Part shown: positions 9,455 to 56,425 of the stretch, one piece after another
How positions within the stretch are numbered: position 1 is the stretch's first letter
Layout: each line of letters begins with the position of its first letter
DNA from: Escherichia coli
Lineage (GTDB): Bacteria > Pseudomonadota > Gammaproteobacteria > Enterobacterales > Enterobacteriaceae
DNA length: 64,000 bases
Direction: 5' to 3' (one strand)
Assembly: GCF_024223415.1 (NCBI RefSeq)
Contig: NZ_CP100500.1
The notes under the pieces: model-generated
What the model saw: only the letters and a program-made list of their open reading frames with translations
Databases searched by the model: none
What the model was told of the DNA's origin: nothing
Position numbers and translations under genes: made by a program

Positions 9455-9490
9455 TAAAAAAACCTGCTGGTGAGGCAGGTTCTTTTATTT
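9455..9490 (-). terminator. Rho-independent terminator downstream of yehK
   Basis: The aacctgc/gcaggtt stem is flanked by an A-run and a T-run. On the minus strand the hairpin is followed by TTTTTTT. Confidence 0.6.
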
Positions 9491-9650
9491 ACTATTTTCA
9501 GGCCTAACACCACAGCCTGTGCAACATCGTGTTCCAACGAACGAATTATAACCACGGCTGGACCCCGTTGCAATTAAGATAATGAGATTTATAATCCAGG
9601 CCATTGGGACGTTGCGCCGGATCGGACCAATTTGAATTATTTAGAGTATA

Positions 9651-10028: not shown

Positions 10029-13000
10029 TTAATGGAAAATGACGTCAGGTGCGCTTAACGCCTCACTCAAATCAAACACATCAAGTTCGGCAAAGGTGAC
10101 GGATTTATTGTCACGGTACACTCGAAGAGAACGGAAGCTCATTAGCGCTTTGCTATCAACATTGTAGTGGTTAAAACCGGGTGAAAACTTAAGGACCAGC
10201 CGGTACTCACCCAGGTTATAGACAAATGCGTCCTCATAGCCTGACTCCCAGCCTTTGTATCGCATTCCCATAAGTTGCCCAACGGTAGCGGATTTACCTT
10301 CCCAGCGAGTCAGGCTGTTACTGGTTGACTCGTCAGGTGTGAGCAGCACCGTGCGGCGCGACAACTGGCGAAAAGGCGGCATAATTTCGTAATCGGCAAA
10401 AAGCTGTGCAAATTCACTGCGCATTTCTGCTGTCATTTCTAACGGGTGGGCAATGCCAATCAGAGCGTCCGCAGGCAGGTCAATTGGCTCATCTTGCGCA
10501 TTGCAGAACTCCCCCTCTGCGGCCACACGAAAGGCTTTGAGTAAACAACGCGGTTCATTTGCCGGATAAACCCCCCATATTAATCGCTGGGTAACCAGAC
10601 GGGTAAAGGGATGATTAACAAACAGAGAATGAAAATCTGCCAGCGACCAGCGTCGGGTGGTACGTAGGGCCGTTTCAAGACGCGGGAGCAGGTTTTTGCT
10701 CACCTGAGTAGCATCTTTTTTTAGCCCTTTTAGTCGGGCCAGTGCCTCGGGCGCTTTCAGTTGATCGTCATCGGCGCGCAAACGGGGAACGCTTTTCTGG
10801 CGAACGTTTTGCTGATCAAAGATAACCGGGTTGAGATTTTCATCGAAGCGAACGGTAAACTGCCGGGGACCAAAATCAAAACTCAACGCCTGCGGATCAT
10901 CAAGGCCCAGGGTTGGGACTAATCTGTCCGCTAGCTCTTCCTGGCTTAGCCCGCGATTTTCTGCGACCACCTGAAGAAATTCCGCCGCGTTATCACGTAA
11001 GGGGCGGGATTTAGCCCGTTGCGATATATGATGCAGCTGTATCAGCGCCATATCATTATTCATCAGGGTAAGGATGTTCAGGCCGCTGACAGCACGGGCA
11101 GATTTGCCTTCTTGTGGCCAGGCGAGGATCTGTGTCGTCAGATCCCGTGCCGTGCTTTCGTCACCAAAGAGACTTAACGCCAGAAATGCCCAGTTGTCTT
11201 TTGCGGGGGCACCAGCTTGTTGCCACGCAGTGAAGAGATCCCAAGCAAAAGCTGCCAGCGTTTGTGGCTGGCAGAACGTTTTCAGTTGTTCCAGCCCGCT
11301 ATAAAAACGTCCCCCCTGGGTAAAGCGCAGCATTTCGCCGATAATTTCCAGAGCGTCATTGGTAACAGTTTGATTATTAGTGATAAGGCGCGGCCTGGAC
11401 CACATTTGCGGATGCCAGAAATCAGGGGCTTTTGGAATGCGTGCCGGGTAAATGTCCATTGGACCCTGTTTAAGCAACTGCTCCAGGGCAGACCATACAT
11501 CTGTACGCTGCCAGCGGTTTGCCACGGTTTGTAGCAATTCGCCATGTCCCTGTTCGTACAGTAAACGCAGGGCAAGTAATGCGGCTTCGCTATTATCGCT
11601 GGGTTTGGTAAAGACAAGAGGGATAAGTGCACTAGCCGTATGTTCCGGCCATTGTAAAATCCACTGGCGAGCCAGATCACGCTGCGCCGCGAAACGTCGC
11701 CAGACGTGGGCAACAGGCAGCGCCAGTTCTGTTGCGCCAAAATTTAAAATTAACGGAAATGTTTCTTTTGGACGATGTGAAAAAGCCAACAGCAGACCTG
11801 GTAGCGCATCCAATCCGAGGATACTGAGAAAATAGTCCTCACCCGCGAACAGATGCTTTTTCTCATTGATACGCAGCCAGAAGGTCAAAGCCATCTCACG
11901 CGGCAACTGTGCCAATAAATACAGGTTCCAGACACTCTTTTCCGGACGATAATGTGAGTAGTTGTCATTTTCCCATATGTTAATTAACGCTTCTATGTGA
12001 CCGCTGCGGAGCGCCTGTTCTGCTAATTGTGCTTCCGGGGAGTTCCAGCCATTCAGGATCTCTTCAACCCGCCCCTGGTAGTAATGCCACTGAACAAAGA
12101 GTGAATTGCGTGCAGCATCCAGTTTTCCGGGGAGTATATAATTCAGAAACAGCCATACATCATCCCCAAAACCCAGTTCCTGTAATACAACTCGTCCACT
12201 TTTTTGTTCCATGCGTTGCGCAAGAGATTCCGTGCTGAAATAACGGGCAGGCTCAGTGGCGGCAAGCCTCTCTTGTTCGCCTGGTTGCCAGTAAACTTGC
12301 GGAGTTAATTCGAGCGGTGCCAAATCAAGACGTGGAGCTGTCATTTTTTTCTTACTACGCCACGGTGGTGAAACGAGGATTTCTGGCAGATTGCTGTTAT
12401 CGGTGCCATCAATAACCGGTTTGGGCGGTGCCGATAAATAACTCTTCAGCACTGACTGGGGTTGAGTACTTAACCACGGCATCACTTCTGCTGCCAGTTG
12501 TGGCTGCGATGCCATCAGCGTTTGTAACAGCGCACGCCAGTATTCATCGCGTGCTTTTTGCTGTGCAGGCAGCTTTTTGTCTTCGATGATTGGATAACCA
12601 GGGCGGGCTGGTGGTTCTGTTAACGCCAGCAGTTCTGCCAGTGCGGCGAGCGTCGCATGGGGGAAGTTTTTATGGTATTTAGCTACACGTTGCAGGCTGG
12701 GTTTGTTTTTATCAGCCACCAGTAGCAAGGTGCGGATGACTTGCGGATGGTTAATTTGTACCAGCAGACTGCCGCAATCTTCTTTATGGGCATACATCGC
12801 GAGGCGCGGAATGGCTGCCAGTCCTTGTTCGCGCAAAAGGGCGGCGCAGGCCGCGTAGCCGAAGTGGTTTTCATGCGACATGTAGCTGGCTTCTCGATCG
12901 CTAAATATATCCTGGCTCCAGTAGTGTTCGAGTTTTCTCACCGCTGTGGGGTCATTAGCAACAACTTTTAACCACTCCTTAGAATGAAAATGAGTTCGCG

Positions 13001-28416: not shown

Positions 28417-28510
28417 TTTATTAACGCGATTGTAAAACTGCCGTTTTTCCTCGTTTACAACGCGTGCGCTGGACATTACCATCCTCCTCTGCGATTTATC
28501 ATCGCAACCA

Positions 28511-28557
28511 AACGACTCGGGGTGCCCTTCTGCGTGAAGGCTGAGAAATACCCGTAT
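28511..28557 (+). promoter_or_regulatory. 5' half of the thiM TPP (THI-box) riboswitch aptamer, cut off by the island
   Basis: aacgactcggggtgcccttctgcgtgaaggctgagaaatacccgtat equals the 5' part of the crystallised E. coli thiM aptamer. Similarity ends abruptly at 28557. Confidence 0.88.
28544..28557 (+). repeat. attL core (direct repeat copy 1)
   Basis: agaaatacccgtat is identical to 39954-39967. Confidence 0.8.
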
Positions 28558-28642: not shown

Positions 28643-28718
28643 TTGTTTGTTGTTGTTCGTCGTTGTTCGTAGAGCTTCAACAAAATGTGTGGTCAGTTGT
28701 GTGGTCAGTTTTTTGAGG
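28643..28718 (+). repeat. Left-arm copy of a ~75-bp repeat shared by both island arms (candidate Int arm-type sites)
   Basis: 28653-28712 is 60/60 identical to 39831-39890. It contains tandem GTGTGGTCAGTT x2 and TTGTTCGT x2, and a further GTTGTTCGT copy lies near 28594. Confidence 0.8.
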
Positions 28719-28745: not shown

Positions 28746-29969
28746 GTGGGAAAAGCACTAAACAAACTGAGCGATTCGACGTTAAAAAAATTGGCGTCTG
28801 TCCAAGCAGAAAAAGAGCGTTTTTACTCCGACGGGGGCGGGCTGGAGATTAAACACTCAAAGGGCGGCAAATTAACCTGGTATTTCCGGTACCGAACGGG
28901 AGGCCGTGAGGTTGCCGCAGAGCGGTTAAAGCTGGGGGCTTACCCTGAATTGTCGCTGAAAGCTGCAAGGGAAAAACGCGCACAGTGCCGGGCATGGCTG
29001 GCTGAGGGTAAAAACCCCCGTTATGAGTTGTGCGCCACAGTACAGGAAGCGCTAAAACCCGTTACGGTGAAGGAGGCGATTAACTACTGGCTGGATGAAT
29101 ATGCGAAGGATAACCGCAAAGACTACATAAAGCTGGTGCAACGTATGGATAAGCACATCATTTGCCATATAGGGGCAATTCCCCTTGATAAGTGTGATAC
29201 AAGGCAGTGGATCGCATGTTTTGACCGTGTACGAAAAAAAGCACCAGTAGCAGCAGGGCACGTCATGCAAACCTGCAAACAGGCGCTAAAGTTCTGCCGC
29301 AGGAGACGCTACGCGTTCAGTAATGCCCTGGACGATTTGATCGTCAGCGATGTGGGTAAGAGAGCAGAAATTCGCGAGAGGGTGCACAGCAACAGCGAAT
29401 TAAAGGAAATTTTACGCGCTATTGATGGTGATGTGTTCGCGCCTTACTACAGCGCGTTAATGCGCTTGCTGATTGTGTTCGGGTGCAGAACGGCAGAGGT
29501 CAGACTTTCAGAGATCAAAGAATGGGATCTGAAAGAAATGTTGTGGACAGTGCCAAAAGAGCATAGCAAAACGAAGGTAACGATATTCAGGCCAATCCCC
29601 GATGGCATTTTGCCGTTCATTCAGAAGCTGGTGGAGCAGAACCGGCATACAGGGTTATTACTCGGAGAACTGAAAAAAGATACCACGGTAGCGCAATATG
29701 GGCGAAATGCGCATAAGCGGCTTAACCAGGAACACTGGACGCTGCATGACTTTCGCCACACGTTTACAACGATGCTGAACGATTTAGGTGTCGATCCGCA
29801 TATCGTGGAGCACATCACAGCGCATCAGATGCCCGGTCAGCAAAAAACCTATAACCATTCACGCTATTTACAGGCGAAGCGAGACGCTCTGAATCTGTGG
29901 GTTGAGCGCCTCGATGTGCTGGCTGGAAATCATGAAAATATTGTCATATTAAGGGCTGAAAATGAATAA
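28746..29969 (+). CDS. int: Tyrosine recombinase, P4-type integrase
   Basis: GTG start with a GAGGA RBS 7 nt upstream. The N-terminus resembles an arm-binding domain (GGGLEIKHSKGGKLTWYFRYR). The C-terminus has HDFRHTF...HQ...Y catalytic motifs. Confidence 0.9.
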   Translation: MGKALNKLSDSTLKKLASVQAEKERFYSDGGGLEIKHSKGGKLTWYFRYRTGGREVAAERLKLGAYPELSLKAAREKRAQCRAWLAEGKNPRYELCATVQEALKPVTVKEAINYWLDEYAKDNRKDYIKLVQRMDKHIICHIGAIPLDKCDTRQWIACFDRVRKKAPVAAGHVMQTCKQALKFCRRRRYAFSNALDDLIVSDVGKRAEIRERVHSNSELKEILRAIDGDVFAPYYSALMRLLIVFGCRTAEVRLSEIKEWDLKEMLWTVPKEHSKTKVTIFRPIPDGILPFIQKLVEQNRHTGLLLGELKKDTTVAQYGRNAHKRLNQEHWTLHDFRHTFTTMLNDLGVDPHIVEHITAHQMPGQQKTYNHSRYLQAKRDALNLWVERLDVLAGNHENIVILRAENE

Positions 29970-30837: not shown

Positions 30838-31062
30838 ATGAATCAAAATACACAATTTCAATCACTATCAGATCGCGTAATCCGTGAGGATGAATGCCGT
30901 AAGTTAACAGGAGTGTGCCGCACTACACGCTACGAACTGGAGAAAAAAGGGAGCTTTCCGTCTCGCCGTAATCTTGGTGGGCGTTCTGTAGGTTGGCTGC
31001 TGTCCGAGGTTATGGAATGGGTTAAAAGCCGGGATCGCATTAATTCAGGCAAGGCAGCGTAA
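30838..31062 (+). CDS. alpA: AlpA-family (prophage CP4-57 regulatory / excisionase-like) DNA-binding protein
   Basis: 74 aa with the motif RVIREDECRKLTGVCRTTRYELEKKGSFPSRRNLGGRSVGWLLSEVMEWV, typical of the AlpA/Vis family. Confidence 0.85.
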   Translation: MNQNTQFQSLSDRVIREDECRKLTGVCRTTRYELEKKGSFPSRRNLGGRSVGWLLSEVMEWVKSRDRINSGKAA

Positions 31063-32528: not shown

Positions 32529-32828
32529 ATGAAAAATAAAAATTCTGGCGTTAATGCCAGCGGCCCCGCTCGGCCTGAATTTATGAACGGCGATATTTAC
32601 CGCGACCAGTACGGCGGCACGGTAACGATTAAAGGCGTGGAGGAACGGCGCATCACTTACCGCCGTGAAGGCTACGAATATGATTGCGTGATGCCTGTTT
32701 ATCAGTTCCGGCGTGATTTTTCTCTGGTACAGGCAGCGCCCCGCAGTAAACCAACCAGCAGGGAGAAAGCACGCGCCAATATTCAGGAAATAAAAAAGAT
32801 GCTTAACGTATTCAGGGGTAAAAAATGA
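32529..32828 (+). CDS. Hypothetical 99-aa protein (DUF4222-like, common in enterobacterial prophage-like elements)
   Basis: The motif GDIYRDQYGGTVTIKGVEERRITYR supports the family assignment, which is from memory only. Confidence 0.5.
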   Translation: MKNKNSGVNASGPARPEFMNGDIYRDQYGGTVTIKGVEERRITYRREGYEYDCVMPVYQFRRDFSLVQAAPRSKPTSREKARANIQEIKKMLNVFRGKK

Positions 32829-34573
32829 AACTGGCACCGAACGTAAAAAAACAGCCGCGTGGAATAAAACACAAAGACACAGAGGTGATTATCTTTGCGG
32901 GTAGTGATGCCTGGGCGCACGCGAAACAGTGGCAGGAACAGGACGGCCCCGCATCCGGCGATGATGTGCCGCCTGTGTGGCTCGGGCCAAATCAGCTTGC
33001 TGAACTGGATGCACTGAAAATTGTACCGGAGGGAAAAAAACGCGTAAGGCTGTACAGGGCCGGAGAACTGGATTTGGTGGAGACCAAAAAGATTGGTCAG
33101 AAGCTGGCGGCGGCAGATATTCAGGATGCGAATTTTTACTCTGAAGGAATGCACGGCCAGAAGGTGCAGAACTGGCGGCGCTATCTGAGTGCTGAGCGTG
33201 AAAATATTGCCGCAGGGCTTACCATGCCGGAACAGAAAAAAGCACAACTTTCACAGATGGCAGACAGTGAACGGGCACAGCTTCTTTCTTCCCGCTTTGA
33301 TGGTGTCTGCGTCCATGCAGAAAGTGAAATCGTTCACGTATGGCGCGGCGGGGTATGGTGTCCGGTCAGCACAATGGAACTTAGCCGCGAAATGGTGGCG
33401 ATCTATTCAGAGCACAGGGCCACTTTCAGCAAGCGCGTAATCAATAACGCCGTGGAAGCGTTAAAAGTTATTGCCGAACCAATGGGCGAGCCGTCCGGCG
33501 ATTTGCTGCCGTTCGCCAATGGTGCGCTTGACCTGAAAACGGGGGAATTTTCCCCGCACACGCCGGAGAACTGGATCACCACGCACAACGGCATTGAGTA
33601 CACGCCACCAGCACCAGGGGAGAATATCTGCGACAACGCGCCAAACTTTCATAAATGGCTTGAGCACGCAGCCGGAAAAGACCCGCGCAAGATGATGCGT
33701 ATATGTGCCGCGCTGTACATGATTATGGCGAACCGGTACGACTGGCAGATGTTTATTGAGGCCACCGGAGACGGCGGGAGCGGCAAAAGTACATTCACAC
33801 ACATAGCCAGCCTTCTGGCAGGGAAACAGAACACGGTAAGCGCTGAGATGACATCGCTTGATGATGCTGGTGGGCGTGCGCAGGTTGTCGGGAGTCGGCT
33901 TATTGTCCTGGCAGACCAGCCGAAATATACAGGCGAAGGAACGGGCATCAAGAAAATCACGGGCGGAGACCCCGTGGAAATAAACCCGAAATATGAGAAG
34001 CGTTTTACGGCGGTAATCAGGGCGGTGGTGCTGGCTACCAACAATAACCCGATGATATTCACCGAACGGGCCGGAGGTGTGTCACGTCGTCGCGTAATTT
34101 TCCGTTTCGACAATATCGTCAGTGAGGCTGAAAAAGACAGGGAGCTACCGGAAAAGATTGCGGCTGAAATCCCTGTCATTATCCGCCGCTTGCTGGCGAA
34201 CTTTGCCGACCCTGAAAAGGCACGGGCTTTACTCATTGAACAGCGAGACGGTGATGAAGCTCTGGCAATAAAGCAACAGACGGATCCGGTTATTGAGTTT
34301 TGCCAGTTTCTGAATTTTCTGGAGGAAGCGCGCGGCCTGATGATGGGCGGCGGCGGTGACTCTTCCAGGTACACGACCAGAAACAGCCTTTACCGCGTCT
34401 ATCTGGCGTTTATGGCGTATGCAGGCAGGAGCAAACCGCTAAACGTAAATGACTTTGGCAAGGCTATGAAGCCAGCGGCGAAAGTTTACGGACATGAATA
34501 TATAACGCGCAGGATTAAAGGGTTTACGCAAACCAACGTGACAACAACAGACGACTGCGACGCGTTTTTATAA
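32825..34573 (+). CDS. Replication initiator/helicase, phage-plasmid primase P4-family C-terminal type (SF3 helicase); primase activity of the N-terminus is uncertain
   Basis: NGALDLKTGEF motif, Walker A GDGGSGKST and Walker B LIVLAD. ATGA overlap with the upstream gene. Iterons lie immediately downstream. Confidence 0.85.
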   Translation: MKLAPNVKKQPRGIKHKDTEVIIFAGSDAWAHAKQWQEQDGPASGDDVPPVWLGPNQLAELDALKIVPEGKKRVRLYRAGELDLVETKKIGQKLAAADIQDANFYSEGMHGQKVQNWRRYLSAERENIAAGLTMPEQKKAQLSQMADSERAQLLSSRFDGVCVHAESEIVHVWRGGVWCPVSTMELSREMVAIYSEHRATFSKRVINNAVEALKVIAEPMGEPSGDLLPFANGALDLKTGEFSPHTPENWITTHNGIEYTPPAPGENICDNAPNFHKWLEHAAGKDPRKMMRICAALYMIMANRYDWQMFIEATGDGGSGKSTFTHIASLLAGKQNTVSAEMTSLDDAGGRAQVVGSRLIVLADQPKYTGEGTGIKKITGGDPVEINPKYEKRFTAVIRAVVLATNNNPMIFTERAGGVSRRRVIFRFDNIVSEAEKDRELPEKIAAEIPVIIRRLLANFADPEKARALLIEQRDGDEALAIKQQTDPVIEFCQFLNFLEEARGLMMGGGGDSSRYTTRNSLYRVYLAFMAYAGRSKPLNVNDFGKAMKPAAKVYGHEYITRRIKGFTQTNVTTTDDCDAFL

Positions 34574-36050: not shown

Positions 36051-36257
36051 ATGGCAGAAGAGAAAAAAGGCGGGGTGACGGTCTACATAAGCCCCGACAT
36101 CGTGGAGGCGCTCAAGGAACGCCACCAGCAGAATGTAAAAGCAGGCATTGCGGCAGGACTTGATCCGCTGGCGATGGTTGAGCCGTCAACAGGCTGGCAG
36201 GTGCGTACCTATTTACGTGCGGCGCTGGGTATCAATCAGGTTCACGGAGGTGAATAA
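36051..36257 (+). CDS. Hypothetical 68-aa protein, first gene of the capsid module
   Basis: AGAGGA RBS. Its stop overlaps the capsid gene start (TAATG). Confidence 0.55.
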   Translation: MAEEKKGGVTVYISPDIVEALKERHQQNVKAGIAAGLDPLAMVEPSTGWQVRTYLRAALGINQVHGGE

Positions 36258-37312
36258 TGACAGGCAAAGCAACGGCACTTACAACTAACCAGCTTTTCGC
36301 GTACCTGAATCGCGGGGATATTTCGGAATTAAAATTCAGTCCGCTGTTTACCACGCTGTTTTTCCCGAACGTGGCGACCTTCAACACCCAAAACATCATG
36401 CTGGACACCCTGGACATTGAAGAGGTTACGATGTCAGCGTTCTGTTCGCCTATGGTGGGTAGTCAGGTCCAGCGCGATAAAGGGTACGAAACCAGCACAA
36501 TCAAACCTGGCTACATGAAGCCAAAGCACGAAATCGATCCAACAAAGACCATCATGCGCATGGCTGGAGAAGATCCGGCACAGCTTAACGACCCAACCTA
36601 TCGCCGTATGCGCCTGATTACTGGCAACATGCGCCGCCAGGTAAACGCCATTAAAGCGCGTGTTGAATGGCTGGCGGTGAATGCGGTAACGACCGGAAAA
36701 AACATCATTGAGGGCGAAGGCATAGAACGCTATGAAATCGACTGGAAAATACCGGAAAACTGCATCATACAGCAGGCCAGTGGTAAAAAATGGTCCCAGC
36801 AGGATAAAGACATGCACGACCCAATCTATGACATCGAGCTTTATGCTGATCAGGCAGGTTGCCCCGCCAACGTCATGATTATGGGCGGTGAGGTATGGCG
36901 CACATTACGCAGCTTTAAAAAATTCCGTGAACTGTACGATCTTTCCCGTGGATCAGAATCCGCCGCCGAGCTGGCCTGTAAAAACCTGGGCGAAGTGGTG
37001 AGCTTTAAAGGCTATCTTGGTGATCTGGCCCTTATCGTCTATTCCGGCAAATACACTGACAGCGACGGCACCGAAAAATATTTCCTTGAGCCTGATTTGC
37101 TGGTCCTGGGTAACACCAATAATAAAGGGCTGGTGGCATATGGTGCGATTATGGATCAGGAAGCGGTAAGAACGGGCGCAACGCAAAACATGTACTACCC
37201 GAAAAACTGGATTGAGGACGGCGATCCGGCGATTGAGTACGTGCAGACGCACAGCGCACCGCAGCCGGTACCGGCAGATATTCGCAAATTTGTTACCGTC
37301 AAAATTGCTTAA
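36257..37312 (+). CDS. Major capsid protein, lambda gpE family
   Basis: Collinear similarity to lambda gpE as recalled: PGYMKPKHEIDP vs PGYVKPKHEVNP, DPTYRRMRL vs DPAYRRRRI, and YPKNWIEDGDPAIEYVQTHSAP vs YPKNWVTTGDPAREFTMIQSAP. Length is 351 aa against 341 aa for gpE. Confidence 0.88.
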   Translation: MTGKATALTTNQLFAYLNRGDISELKFSPLFTTLFFPNVATFNTQNIMLDTLDIEEVTMSAFCSPMVGSQVQRDKGYETSTIKPGYMKPKHEIDPTKTIMRMAGEDPAQLNDPTYRRMRLITGNMRRQVNAIKARVEWLAVNAVTTGKNIIEGEGIERYEIDWKIPENCIIQQASGKKWSQQDKDMHDPIYDIELYADQAGCPANVMIMGGEVWRTLRSFKKFRELYDLSRGSESAAELACKNLGEVVSFKGYLGDLALIVYSGKYTDSDGTEKYFLEPDLLVLGNTNNKGLVAYGAIMDQEAVRTGATQNMYYPKNWIEDGDPAIEYVQTHSAPQPVPADIRKFVTVKIA

Positions 37313-37671: not shown

Positions 37672-38085
37672 ATGGCAACGAATGAAAGTATCATGACGCT
37701 ACCGCTGGCGAGTAAATTTAAAGCCGAAGCGCGGGCAATGGCTGACAGAGGTTTATCAACCTACGAGGCCATACACCGACTAAACAAACTGGAAGAACAG
37801 GACAAGCCGCGCGCTGATGCGATTATGGCGCTTCATGAATCTGACGACTACCAGCCGCTGTTACGTGCAATGGCTAACGTGCCTTGTATCGATGTTGGTA
37901 CGGCTAAAAGCATCCTTAGCATGACCATAGAGCAGGAACGCCCGAAGGTTGCACCAGAGCTTACTTCAGCCTTTGAAAACTTTATGGACATGCACAGCCC
38001 GAAAGCCGTATCAGCTGGCATGGCATACGATGGCAGAACCCCGTGCGATGACGGCGACATCGACCGCATACTGAAAACCATCTGA
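37672..38085 (+). CDS. Hypothetical 137-aa protein in the capsid module (function unknown; a scaffold or size-determination role is only a guess)
   Basis: ORF with a GGGGGA RBS, last gene before the terminator and cos site. Confidence 0.55.
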   Translation: MATNESIMTLPLASKFKAEARAMADRGLSTYEAIHRLNKLEEQDKPRADAIMALHESDDYQPLLRAMANVPCIDVGTAKSILSMTIEQERPKVAPELTSAFENFMDMHSPKAVSAGMAYDGRTPCDDGDIDRILKTI

Positions 38086-38090
38086 GACAA

Positions 38091-38114
38091 GGCCGGAGAA
38101 ATCCGGCTTTTTTT
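38091..38114 (+). terminator. Rho-independent terminator after the capsid module
   Basis: ggccgga-gaaa-tccggc followed by TTTTTTT. Confidence 0.75.
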
Positions 38115-38116
38115 GC

Positions 38117-38190
38117 GGGTCCTTTCCGGCATGTGGACCCGTTACGGGGCGTCGACCTCGCACGTTTTCGCTATTTATGACGTTTTTCCG
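38117..38190 (+). other. cos site 1 (plus orientation): lambda-like cosQ-cosN and the beginning of cosB
   Basis: gggtcctttccgg...cccgttacGGGCGTCGACCTcgcacgttttcgctatttatga matches recalled lambda gggtcctttccgg...ggttacgGGGCGGCGACCTcgcgggttttcgctatttatga. The 12-nt overhang equivalent is at 38147-38158 (11/12 identical to lambda). Confidence 0.8.
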
Positions 38191-38247
38191 TGAAGGTGAC
38201 ACCACCACCACTTGATTAATATTTAACCATGTAGTTAAGGTAACATT

Positions 38248-38682
38248 ATGATTGATAAAGCTTGTTTTGTAAGTCAGCAGGAAATAGCTGAACATTTCAA
38301 TGTTAACAGAACCACTATTCGCGCATGGACCAAACAGGGGATGCCGTATCTTAATGCGGATCGCGGAAAGTCTGGCGGTTATCACATCGGGCATACATTG
38401 TTTTGGTATTCAGGTAAAAGCCATCTTCAGACCATCGGATATCACGTAGAAACCAGTGCGCTGGAAAAAATTATGTTTGCCAGGCTGCTTTCATCTGAGC
38501 GTGACGAGTACTCCAGTGAAGAAACAGAACATCGATTTGATGAAGGTTTGCAGATTTACGGCTATTCACCGGAAGATGTGAGCAAGGCACGAAATAAAAT
38601 GGCTGGCTTTCTGGCTGGGTGGCGTCATGCCGTAAGCGTTCGCCGTGCCAGCATGGAGCAATCAGCCGATACAGAACAGTAA
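38248..38682 (+). CDS. Small terminase subunit, lambda Nu1-like (winged HTH N-terminus)
   Basis: VSQQEIAEHFNVNRTTIRAWTKQGMPYLNADRGKSGGYHIGHTLFWY parallels Nu1 KKQLADIFGASIRTIQNWQEQGMPVLRGGGKGNEVLYDSAAVIKWY. It lies just downstream of cos site 1, as Nu1 does in lambda. Confidence 0.75.
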   Translation: MIDKACFVSQQEIAEHFNVNRTTIRAWTKQGMPYLNADRGKSGGYHIGHTLFWYSGKSHLQTIGYHVETSALEKIMFARLLSSERDEYSSEETEHRFDEGLQIYGYSPEDVSKARNKMAGFLAGWRHAVSVRRASMEQSADTEQ

Positions 38683-38850: not shown

Positions 38851-38930
38851 TCCCGAAAAATTTTCATAAATAGTGAAAACGCGCGGGTTCGACGCCCCGT
38901 AACGGGCCATAATTCCAGAAGGACCCGACG
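38851..38930 (-). other. cos site 2 (minus orientation): second lambda-like cosQ-cosN, convergent with cos site 1
   Basis: The minus strand reads gggtccttctgg...cccgttacGGGCGTCGAACCcgcgcgttttcactatttatgaaaattttt. The overhang equivalent is at 38886-38897 (9/12 to lambda). An 18-nt core (38889-38906) is identical to 38138-38155. Confidence 0.75.
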
Positions 38931-38960: not shown

Positions 38961-39242
38961 ATGACAGAAGCCGAACTACTGGGATTAATCCGCCGCGTTA
39001 CCGGAATCAGCCAGCAGCATGACGAACAGGCCACGCAGCCGGACAGCGTGACCGCCGAAAATTATGTGCGTGTTGTTGCGGAGGTGATGCGCCGTGACGG
39101 TATTGAGCTTAACGGCGTGGATATGCGCGACATACGGATCCGCGTTCTGGAAATGCTGGCATACCGTCGCCGCGTGCAGACGTACAGGGAAAAAGCAAAA
39201 ATAACGTACCACTGGAAGAAGCCGGAACGACTGCGTACGTAA
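38961..39242 (+). CDS. Hypothetical 93-aa protein
   Basis: ORF with a GGGGG RBS. It ends in the palindrome CGTACGTA-A-TACGTACG (39233-39249). Confidence 0.45.
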   Translation: MTEAELLGLIRRVTGISQQHDEQATQPDSVTAENYVRVVAEVMRRDGIELNGVDMRDIRIRVLEMLAYRRRVQTYREKAKITYHWKKPERLRT

Positions 39243-39261
39243 TACGTACGGACATCGAGAT

Positions 39262-39506
39262 AACGCAAAATTGCGCTGGCTACATCCCTCACATCTGAGG
39301 ACTGATAACAAGCTGCCTGAAAGACAGTCACAAACTACGAAATTTTCGCAGTTTAATTAATGGTCAGCTTAATCGCTAACCCGCTGATATTTTCGGAAAC
39401 ATCAATTTGAGGAAGTCGGCGCGGTAACTCGCTGAACTTAAAGCAAAGCGCAAAATTGCGCTGATTACTGGTTGGAATTGTTCCAGAGTGCAAATTTGCA
39501 CTCTGG
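39262..39506. repeat. Set of related inverted repeats (GCGCAA-AA-TTGCGC type) plus a 24-bp perfect palindrome
   Basis: aacgcaaaattgcgct at 39262-39277, agcgcaaaattgcgct at 39447-39462, and ccagagtgcaaatttgcactctgg at 39483-39506. Confidence 0.7.
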
Positions 39507-39667
39507 CCTAACCCGTTGATTATTTCGAAAACCTGCAATGCAGGAAATCGGGGAAGTAAGCCTAAGCTATTGATTGTTTCGAAAACCACCATTGGGGGAT
39601 GTCGGGAAAGTAAGACTAACCCATTGATTCTTCCACAATCCTCAATGTGAGGAGGCCGGACATCGTG
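39376..39667. repeat. Four degenerate ~54-bp repeat units (three in exact tandem phase) in the right arm of the island
   Basis: Units start at 39376, 39508, 39562 and 39616. Consensus is CTAACCCnTTGATTnTTTCGAAAAC plus a short hairpin plus GTCGG..AGTAAG. Confidence 0.75.
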
Positions 39668-39820
39668 ACAGAGCGTGACAACCAGGTAACTAATCTCGCT
39701 GGTGGGCGTGATGTCGATATGGTGATCCCCATAACGGGTTATCCGTGATCATCCACCAGCTTCATGGCAGATAGCCGGAAAATGATAACGGTTAAGCAAA
39801 ACTGCCAGCAAATTTCCCTT

Positions 39821-39894
39821 TTGTTTGTTATTGTTCGTCGTTGTTCGTAGAGCTTCAACAAAATGTGTGGTCAGTTGTGTGGTCAGTTTTGAGG
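39821..39894 (+). repeat. Right-arm copy of the ~75-bp repeat shared by both island arms
   Basis: 39831-39890 is identical to 28653-28712. Confidence 0.8.
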
Positions 39895-39953
39895 TTTTTA
39901 ATTCTTATGTGCTGAAAAACTTATTAATTATCAACTGATAACAAAAATTAGTA

Positions 39954-39967
39954 AGAAATACCCGTAT
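39954..39967 (+). repeat. attR core (direct repeat copy 2)
   Basis: agaaatacccgtat is identical to 28544-28557. Confidence 0.8.
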
Positions 39968-40048
39968 CACCTGATCTGGATAATGCCAGCGTAGGGAAGT
40001 CACGGACCACCAGGTCATTGCTTCTTCACGTTATGGCAGGAGCAAACT
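39954..40048 (+). promoter_or_regulatory. 3' half of the thiM TPP riboswitch aptamer plus its expression platform
   Basis: agaaatacccgtatcacctgatctggataatgccagcgtagggaagtcacgg...ggcaggagcaaact continues the thiM aptamer exactly where 28557 stops and runs to the thiM ATG. Confidence 0.88.
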
Positions 40049-47841: not shown

Positions 47842-47985
47842 GCCTTATACGGACAACACCACCCCGTAGGACGGATAAGGCGTTTACGCTGCATCCGGCA
47901 ACCTATGCCTGATGCGACGCTGAAGCGTCTTATCATGCCTACATAGCACTGCCACGTATGTTTACACCGCATCCGGCATAAAAAC
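47842..47985. repeat. REP/BIME cluster
   Basis: gtaggacggataaggcgtttacgctgcatccggca, tgcctgatgcgacgctgaagcgtcttatcatgcctaca and tgtttacaccgcatccggcat are typical E. coli REP sequences. Confidence 0.85.
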
Positions 47986-56253: not shown

Positions 56254-56341
56254 AAAAAAATAAGCCCGTGTAAGGGAGATTACACAGGCTAAGGAGGTGG
56301 TTCCTGGTACAGCTAGCATTTTATGGGTTATGTTTTTCAGC
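56254..56341 (-). ncRNA. cyaR: CyaR (RyeE) Hfq-dependent sRNA
   Basis: The minus strand reads gctgaaaaacataacccataaaatgctagctgtaccaggaaccacctccttagcctgtgtaatctcccttacacgggcttattttttt, which is the CyaR sequence as I recall it. A CRP half-site TGTGA-N6-TCTAA is centred about 42 bp upstream (56376-56391) and a TATCAT -10 is present. Confidence 0.9.
56255..56281. other. Apparently unoccupied phage P2 attB (locI-type core) overlapping the cyaR terminator
   Basis: aaaaaataagcccgtgtaagggagatt matches the 27-nt P2 att core as I recall it. No ogrK/yegZ remnant lies between yegR and cyaR. Confidence 0.55.
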
Positions 56342-56425
56342 GAAACGGATGATAACCTTAATAAATGCAGCTGTATGTGATCGGTTTCTAAGAATTTTCC
56401 ATCCGGGAAAAATAATCGAAATTAA

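Follow-up and report, generated by a model that had tools for sequence, protein, structure and literature searches.

The late promoters Psid and PLL of satellite P4 carry sites for Ogr, the activator of its helper phage P2, and the "incompatibility" arrays of plasmid iterons are clustered sites that influence how available a trans-acting protein is, or what state it is in. The phage protein Roi was reportedly shown by Clerget and Boccard in 1996 to bind a site in its own gene, beside a site for IHF, with IHF stabilising the complex. Roi is a DNA-binding protein, the Rha domain is a winged helix-turn-helix (HTH), and Rha and Roi are described in the literature as inhibiting phage growth in IHF mutants. 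The datA locus of E. coli has been mentioned as a factor-box plus IHF locus (PMC13036160). Amongst phage satellites, the Stl repressors of SaPIs sense helper-phage proteins, and EcCICFT073 is mobilised by lambda and phi80, its phage-encoded inducer being still unidentified in 2018 (PMC6092414). In the literature searched, PICI genomics included, neither a link between Roi or Rha and PICIs nor a description of the array analysed here was found.

The island and its repeat units

The window, a stretch of 64,000 nucleotides of E. coli DNA, contains an 11.4 kb island inserted at the thiM TPP riboswitch, and the array is located in the non-coding right arm of this island. The main features of the island are:

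28544-28557: partner att core, AGAAATACCCGTAT
28643-28712 and 39821-39890: 70-bp repeat (arm sequence)
28746-29969: int, encoding an integrase with a P4-type arm domain
30838-31062: alpA
32825-34573: D5-type primase gene, preceded by a DUF4222 gene
36257-37312: lambda-E-like capsid protein gene; a D-like decoration protein is also encoded
38108-38200: lambda-type cos, with a cosN-like GGGCGTCGACCT at 38147
38248-38682: gene for an Rpp homologue (Rpp/Nu1-like; PDB 6HLK, E = 1.6e-33)
about 38851-38926: second copy of cos, inverted, downstream of rpp
38961-39242, plus strand: o93, the last island gene (PHROG 1561)
39864-39887, plus strand: arm-type doubled motif, TGTGTGGTCAGT twice, repeated at 28686-28709
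39954-39967: attR crossover core, AGAAATACCCGTAT, 14 bp, inside the thiM TPP riboswitch

With int, alpA, a primase, capsid and decoration homologues, rpp and a lambda-type cos, the island is an EcCICFT073-type PICI. From the DUF4222 gene to the stop codon of o93 it is 91.4% identical to EcCICFT073 at the nucleotide level; homology ends at this stop codon, where the variable arm begins. The island also encodes SSB and PerC. No Rha-domain protein was found among the island proteins. Homologues of o93 are all annotated as "hypothetical", and sequence searches returned no solved structure for o93 or for the Roi N-domain. The doubled motif TGTGTGGTCAGT is probably an Int/AlpA arm site, analogous to the doubled arm motif described for HE-PICIs (PMC10111431), and differs in sequence from the array.

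The array and the cassettes that surround it are, in order:

39259-39281, plus strand: a further G box, CGCAAAATTGCG (39264-39275); no intact IHF half here
39376-39419, plus strand: unit 1, IHF-like core TAACCCGCTGATA (39377-39389; one mismatch to the consensus, ATCAG) and putative class-A Roi box CATCAATTTGAGG (39400-39412; one defect)
39425-39462, plus strand: Rha-type "G" box cassette, degenerate IHF-like half TAACTCGCTGAAC and palindrome AGCGCAAAATTGCGCT (39447-39462)
39465-39506, plus strand: cassette adjoining unit 2, degenerate IHF-like half TTACTGGTTGGAAT and perfect 24-bp palindrome CCAGAGTGCAAATTTGCACTCTGG (39483-39506)
39508-39551, plus strand: unit 2, IHF consensus match TAACCCGTTGATT (39509-39521) and putative class-B Roi box CCTGCAATGCAGG (39532-39544; perfect dyad, CCTGCA-A-TGCAGG)
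39562-39605, plus strand: unit 3, IHF consensus match TAAGCTATTGATT (39563-39575) and putative class-C Roi box CCACCATTGGGGG (39586-39598; one defect, the imperfect form found in phage)
39616-39659, plus strand: unit 4, IHF consensus match TAACCCATTGATT (39617-39629) and putative class-A' Roi box CCTCAATGTGAGG (39640-39652; one central defect)

Each unit is about 44 nt long and consists of a site with the IHF consensus WATCAANNNNTTR and, 11 nt further on, a 13-bp palindrome. An earlier, sequence-only reading of this DNA had placed four units at 39376, 39508, 39562 and 39616, the last three in exact 54-bp phase, and this was confirmed by the start-to-start spacings (132, 54 and 54 bp) and by TRF, which reports a period of 54, 2.3 copies and 77% matches. 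The shared 25-nt motif, with up to three mismatches allowed, occurs within the 64 kb only in units 1 to 3 (0 expected from 100 shuffles), and a profile search of the window recovered all four units and no further strong match. Units 2, 3 and 4 fit the IHF consensus perfectly (AATCAACGGGTTA, AATCAATAGCTTA and AATCAATGGGTTA, respectively). The supposed mini-hairpin is a 13-bp DNA dyad, CCnnCA-W-TGnnGG, whose symmetry extends up to the base beside the centre. Here the same reading was right that the sequence changes on both arms between units, but the changing element is this dyad and not an RNA stem. The box set of the window covers each major Roi class, with class A twice (A in unit 1, A' in unit 4) and B and C once each. 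All boxes but that of unit 2 depart by one base from the satellite consensus, and thus this copy of the array may be decaying or weakened. Measured from the true att core (39954-39967), the array is 287-578 bp away, in keeping with the 300-600 bp from attR estimated previously.

The neighbouring palindromes, two copies of GCGCAAAATTGCGC and the one of 24 bp, look like cassettes of the same design as the units, being built from an IHF-like half (TAAC-NNN-YTGAW), about 10 nt and a dyad. The four units belong to a run of approximately 7-8 cassettes at 39259-39667. The core of the 24-bp palindrome, CAGAGTGCAAATTTGCAC, is found 5' of the first unit in most of the arrays examined, and in L344 the 24-bp palindrome is present in cassette form. 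An exact 22-mer of this palindrome occurs in one viral contig, 3' of an Ant-like gene; environmental matches in a 16-mer scan were at about the level of chance. As for the G box, a similar module (IHF site plus ACGCAAAAATGCGC) is situated inside a canonical Rha-family gene in L221, and the homologous block of HE-PICIs keeps an IHF-like half (TAACTTGCTGATA...CGCAAAATTGCG; 15 loci). When the arm was compared by BLAST with a phage collection, only units 3 and 4 gave matches.

Relation of the units to phage roi genes

In a sensitive search of E. coli genomes, single units matched at 92-94% the opposite strand of genes annotated as "phage antirepressor KilAC". These genes are part of the nin region of Stx/lambdoid prophages (ninE-ant-X-ninG-Q) and are annotated as roi in several phages; the Roi proteins consist of a Rha-type N-domain and a KilA-C domain. 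The matching segment corresponds to codons ~41-58 of roi, and different units match different roi alleles. The spacer and box of unit 1 match class-A alleles (TTTCGGAAAC-CTCAATTTGAGG). Unit 2 matches HK022-type roi, and its box is found inside HK022-type and L030-type roi (PALQ codons). Over 53 nt, unit 3 shares 92.5% identity with roi of VT2-Sakai, HK629 and Stx1 phages; for unit 4 the figure is 92-94% over 50 nt, with roi of Stx2c-type and O55:H7 prophages. The homology is also seen in alignments with the roi genes of HK022, L002 and L003. The minus-strand ORF at 39353-39592 does translate the repeats, as had been noted, and it was this translation that exposed the homology to Roi: the ORF reads MVVFETINSLGLL...PALQVFEIINGLG, compared with VIRNPPMVVFEKINNLGLL in phage.

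The conserved CTAACCCnTTGATT reads AATCAAnGGGTTA as its reverse complement and in this form conforms to the IHF consensus. It is the sole match to the consensus in three roi alleles, and the class-specific palindrome is always ~10 bp off. HK022 roi has this module too, at nt ~131-165: the IHF consensus AATCAATGATTTA and, 11 nt further on, the dyad CTGCAATGCAG. Only this IHF-plus-dyad segment of ~50 bp has been retained in the units, and never the flanking roi sequence. The alignments show the units to be non-coding copies of an intragenic roi module that comprises a predicted IHF site and a class-specific dyad, and each dyad is presumed to be the autogenous operator of one Roi specificity class, copied from phage roi. 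The IHF match in roi could be a by-product of the codons for INxLG, but its conservation in the non-coding copies argues otherwise.

The relationship between dyad and protein was analysed in 117 distinct roi N-terminal DNA alleles from IMG/VR. The 13 nt located 16-19 codons past "VK" form a palindrome (at most one mismatch) in 92% of these alleles, compared with 0.8% at control offsets, and alleles that lack the IHF site still have it. The half-site changes in step with what follows "VK" in the putative recognition helix:

...NVKRTIETL: half-site CCTCAA
...VK(V/I)SI(D/E)RL: half-site CCTGCA
...KVKQSIERL: half-site CCCCCA / CCACCA
...DVKRSIERL: half-site (C/G)CGCCA
...VKRTIERL: half-site CCTCCA

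The turn and helix 3 hold most of the mutual information with box class; in helices 1-2 it is close to zero. Since the allele classes are few (~6) and phylogenetically structured, the association of helix and half-site could in part reflect linkage within a mosaic block.

Pairing within the dyad was assessed in 48 distinct units from satellites and phages. In register, 269 of 288 arm cells are Watson-Crick, whereas slid registers reach at most 135, and none of 2000 arm shuffles attained the observed count. No G.U-type pairs occur among the remaining arm cells of these units. The innermost pair is complementary in 12 of 15 distinct dyads, which would not be needed in a triloop hairpin, and the centre base is A or T in every case. 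These statistics favour duplex DNA over RNA. The earlier view of the array as non-coding repeats with a conserved structure, marked by covariation, has been borne out. As far as alignments can tell, the covariation is a signal of protein-DNA recognition rather than of RNA pairing.

Distribution of the array and competing explanations

Full three-unit arrays are present in 139 of 5,426 complete E. coli genomes, while a tandem-array scan for a strict two-unit pattern gave 0 matches in the species-representative genomes of other taxa. The canonical satellite array has the order B-C-A' in 54-bp phase and is 95-100% identical across differing backbones. These include the island of the window and L001 (Int 99%), the clpS PICIs (Int 68%), a capsid-forming PICI, and helper-embedded PICIs inside the portal or capsid genes of prophages (Int 40%). 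In a tRNA-Gly PICI the array is 200 bp upstream of a satellite Q gene; in a dinD-adjacent family of elements it has a spacing of 43 bp and a reversed orientation with respect to the perC gene beside it. Altogether, arrays were located at rcnR/thiM, clpS, phoQ, mdtJI, tRNA-Gly, dinD and in prophage late genes, representing at least 6 att sites. The primases of array-bearing elements are 42-94% identical, or are DUF927 primases, and the only proteins common to all of these elements are small DUF4222 and AlpA-type proteins. Some array-bearing satellites use other terminase systems.

Downstream of o93, 33 of 44 arms contain at least one unit and 11 contain none. Related arrays occupy the right arm of many E. 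coli phage satellites with differing integrases, EcCICFT073 amongst them. The box repertoire varies behind identical o93 proteins, and also between the island of the window and the 91%-identical EcCICFT073. The arm of the latter includes a D-like box, an A box 54 bp on, a C box and TTTCCACCATTGGTGGAAA, which matches one more class of roi.

Across 28 distinct non-coding units from satellites, the best conserved positions are the bases specified by IHF (1.85 bits), followed by the fixed bases of the dyad (1.63 bits). The "NNNN" of the IHF site and the spacer positions are less conserved than these but more so than the tail, for which the value is 0.71 bits, compared with 1.30 in coding phage copies. 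Other satellites carry a perfect CCCCCATTGGGGG where phage roi keeps CCACCATTGGGGG; phage roi would be held at the imperfect form because PPMVV must be encoded. The pattern of conservation, together with the perfected satellite palindrome, indicates selection on two putative protein-binding elements and not on coding or RNA complementarity.

An RNA element seems very unlikely to account for these observations. The array would then be transcribed as the 3' end of the late operon and yield either small hairpins (an sRNA, terminator or protein sponge) or an antisense RNA against the roi mRNA of several phages. It is true that the plus strand is antisense to roi, with 92-94% complementarity over ~50 nt in units 3 and 4, that there is no terminator on this strand between o93 and the array, that in all o93-linked arms the array points the same way as the late operon, and that a GGA motif follows each stem. 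The RNA or terminator module suggested previously nevertheless found no match to a family in Rfam, the z-scores for folding of the array (-1.2 and -0.6 for the two strands) are unremarkable, and neither promoters in the units nor U-tract terminators at the units were found. The stems would be 5-6 bp only, the symmetry takes in the bases that would close the loop, and there are no G.U replacements. Furthermore, the change from CCACC to CCCCC in satellites perfects the dyad while adding a mismatch to phage mRNA, the "NNNN" positions of the IHF site differ from most phage alleles, and in dinD-type elements the module is reversed with respect to the gene beside it. A CsrA-type sponge, considered because of the GGA after the stems, was dropped, as the units are fragments of roi and RNA folding is unremarkable. 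Still less probable is that the units are arm-type or accessory sites for Int, AlpA and IHF that shape attR/attP for excision and integration. The array is indeed located in the attR-side arm, with four phased IHF consensus sites whose 54-bp period is close to 5 helical turns, and in the circular form it would be placed upstream of attP and int. But the same array is shared by integrases that are 40%, 68% and 99% identical to that of the window and by unrelated att sites, it is 290-580 bp from the core, and it lies beyond a doubled motif of different sequence at about -85 and +147. Moreover, the number and composition of units vary at one att site, 11 of 44 o93-linked arms are unit-free, and the homology to phage roi would be left unexplained. 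The proposal of Int/AlpA intasome sites is thus not upheld, given integrases of 40-99% identity, at least 6 att sites, and a position outside the doubled arm motif at 39864-39887.

There is also a small chance that the array consists of decayed and duplicated fragments of captured phage roi that are now without function. The late zones of PICIs capture phage DNA according to the literature, the minus strand still gives Roi-like peptides, and three of the window's boxes are defective. Against such decay, only the IHF-plus-dyad segment of ~50 bp was kept, three classes have a fixed order and phase with 95-100% identity across PICI backbones, and conservation is concentrated at IHF-specified and dyad positions, with one palindrome bettered relative to phage. 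A similarly low probability is assigned to a different ligand, that is, a host or satellite factor or another phage protein that binds the dyads, with Roi not reading them. The 24-bp palindrome and the G boxes, for which no ligand was found, would suit such a factor. However, the half-site covaries with helix-3 residues of Roi in ~6 classes, no island domain resembles Rha, and box classes vary among islands with near-identical proteins. Two further candidates were rejected outright. A cos site or lambda-type cosB is ruled out because cos is at 38108-38200 and ~38851-38926, at least 450 bp from the array. Replication iterons (of a PICI ori, or of the P4 crr type) are ruled out by the lack of copies near the primase gene and of covariation with primase type, and because the units differ from one another.

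Proposed function and comparison with known systems

The explanation that we favour, with reasonable though far from complete confidence, is that the array is an orientation-independent DNA platform of cassettes for host IHF and phage Roi/Rha proteins, and that the island, itself a parasite of phages, probably binds Roi from several of them. A protein site was one of the options raised by the sequence-only reading; it is the option favoured by the evidence, including its IHF part, as each unit has the IHF consensus (with one mismatch in unit 1). Titration of a helper-phage protein, also raised at that stage, comes close to the explanation preferred here, in which sensing and sequestering are both entertained. 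Because the island encodes no Rha-domain protein, the Roi/Rha ligand must come from a co-resident phage. IHF would be bound to the array at all times, and the onset of lytic growth of a lambdoid phage with roi would bring Roi dimers to the matching cassette. The most likely outcome would be a platform for sensing or sequestering, by which the satellite is coupled to whatever Roi/Rha-encoding phage is active, or buffered against it.

If binding does take place, a cis-acting sensor or architectural switch could well be the consequence, although we would put its chances somewhat below even. Such a switch is favoured by the strict helical phasing (54 and 43 bp), by the position of the array, which adjoins attP and int in the circular form, and by the one satellite in which Q follows it. 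Again given binding, a decoy or titration function is possible and only slightly less likely; it is favoured by the variable position and orientation of the array, by the improved dyads, by the location at the cargo end of the island, and by amplification with satellite replication. One site per class per satellite copy would make a weak sink. Some other consequence of binding is unlikely, but not negligibly so. No consistent cis target gene was found beside the arrays. One embedded PICI with a perfect B-C-A array sits in a helper prophage that lacks roi, and this helper is thus ruled out as the source of Roi. The array would not be needed for basic induction, given this roi-less helper prophage and the mobilisation of EcCICFT073 by lambda, which is not known to carry roi.

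A more speculative proposal, which we consider unlikely rather than probable, is that E. coli phage satellites hold a hypervariable "operator library" of shuffled cassettes that mimic the autogenous operators of Rha/Roi proteins together with their IHF site. Such a library would be a DNA-encoded repertoire that sets which phages the satellite detects or disarms, and would amount to an array of receptors made of nucleic acid, whose targets are phage proteins rather than phage nucleic acids. Should the cassettes bind Roi/Rha proteins, a poorly understood family of regulators would gain an operator and a simple recognition code. Gram-negative PICIs, including EcCICFT073, would be seen to carry an unnoticed and fast-evolving non-coding module that targets phage regulators, and there would be a concrete handle on how these satellites sense the phages that share their cell, or interfere with them. 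Phage partners could then be predicted from the boxes in an arm, which would be relevant to Stx phages, since their roi alleles are among the targets.

In terms of known systems, the array would belong with the cis-acting protein-binding arrays of mobile elements, and there is a realistic chance that an operator library represents a new concept. The closest likeness is to the intragenic site of HK022 roi, which has the same combination of IHF consensus and dyad as the array units, the dyad of unit 2 being identical. HK022, however, has a single and presumably autoregulatory site within coding sequence, whereas the array is non-coding, comprises several classes and is carried by a satellite without Roi. 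As in P4, a satellite would possess cis sites for a regulator of its helper phage, and would thereby read the gene expression of the helper. The P4 sites are fixed upstream of a promoter and serve one family of activators, but in the array no promoter was found; it is variable in position and orientation, and would serve several specificities. Like datA and the iteron arrays, it would consist of clustered sites (with IHF) that drive no gene. Those arrays have one specificity, for the element's own protein; by contrast, the array would offer one site for each of several phage proteins and shows fast turnover. The lambda cosB (R sites for the winged HTH of gpNu1, plus the IHF site I1) also combines winged-HTH sites with an IHF bend, but the cos sites of the island are elsewhere, and the array is found in satellites with other terminase systems as well. 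Finally, as with Stl, a satellite would read a specific helper protein with diversifying specificity; the Stl interaction is between proteins, whereas the receptor of the array would be DNA.

Roi palindromes and satellite arrays

In the phage roi alleles a near-perfect 13-bp palindrome occupies a fixed codon window, where it sets four residues of Roi itself (PQIE, PALQ, PPMV or APMA). Examples of these roi genes from three comparison loci are as follows.

L004, 1656-2381: roi gene
L002, 3453-4175, minus strand: roi gene
L003, 3449-4171, minus strand: roi gene

The residues of helix 3 and the half-site of the palindrome go together across the alleles, and this tracking suggests that the Rha-type winged HTH follows a simple recognition code.

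Arrays are also found in other satellites. A lambdoid prophage (L230, NZ_CP041431.1 3502000-3530000) with a DLP12-like nin region hosts a helper-embedded PICI (HE-PICI) that carries a perfect array of box classes B-C-A; the roi gene is absent from this prophage. In a tRNA-Gly PICI (L089), the array (12005-12102) precedes by ~200 bp a Q-family antiterminator gene (12304-12696) that the satellite encodes, an order that recalls roi followed by Q in the phage nin region.

Island insertion and arm elements

The island has inserted into the aptamer of the thiM TPP riboswitch (window 28508-28557 and 39880-40014). What remains at attL is its 5' half (RF00059, 19.5 bits), and at attR the 3' half together with sequence from the island reaches no more than 36.4 bits, below the gathering score of 54.3. 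Because the island splits the aptamer, thiMD is separated from its native promoter and from the 5' aptamer. Three other Rfam matches in the window are ordinary E. coli chromosomal features.

9456-9531: OrzO-P antitoxin RNA
47869-47939: naRNA4
56258-56343: CyaR

A direct repeat of 70 bp is present on both sides of the island.

28643-28712: 70-bp direct repeat, first copy
39821-39890: 70-bp direct repeat, second copy

The repeat belongs to the arms and is not the crossover. It contains a doubled motif (two copies of TGTGTGGTCAGT) whose distances to the 14-bp core are ~85 and 147 bp, a geometry similar to that of the HE-PICI "doubled motif" (PMC10111431).

Satellite arms share further conserved elements (window 39698-39760; also in other arms, among them those of the comparison loci L316, L324 and L344). 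Those that recur are GCTGGTGG...CCACCAGC flanking GGTGATCCCCATAACGGG, as well as TGGTCATAATGACCA and TATGGGGATCCCCATA, and the orientation of some is flipped between islands. A block containing CCTCACATCTGAGG (window 39287-39300) is duplicated and shuffled among arms. CCTCACATCTGAGG itself has a 4-nt centre between class-A arms (CCTCA/TGAGG), and may be a further box variant.

Packaging genes and cos-like sequences

The product of o137 (window 37672-38085, PHROG 1999) weakly matches head-maturation protease profiles in their C-terminal part, and may serve as a scaffold-like factor in capsid assembly. The protein encoded at 38248-38682, a weak "Nu1-like HTH" match, is a clear homologue of the redirecting phage packaging protein RppC (PDB 6HLK, E = 1.6e-33). 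Two mutually inverted sequences, with cosN-like sequences GGGCGTCGACCT and GGGCGTCGAACC, lie on either side of this rpp homologue.

38108-38200: lambda-type cos-like sequence
38851-38926: lambda-type cos-like sequence, inverted relative to the other

The inverted pair around the rpp homologue parallels the cos1/cos2 layout described for EcCICFT073.
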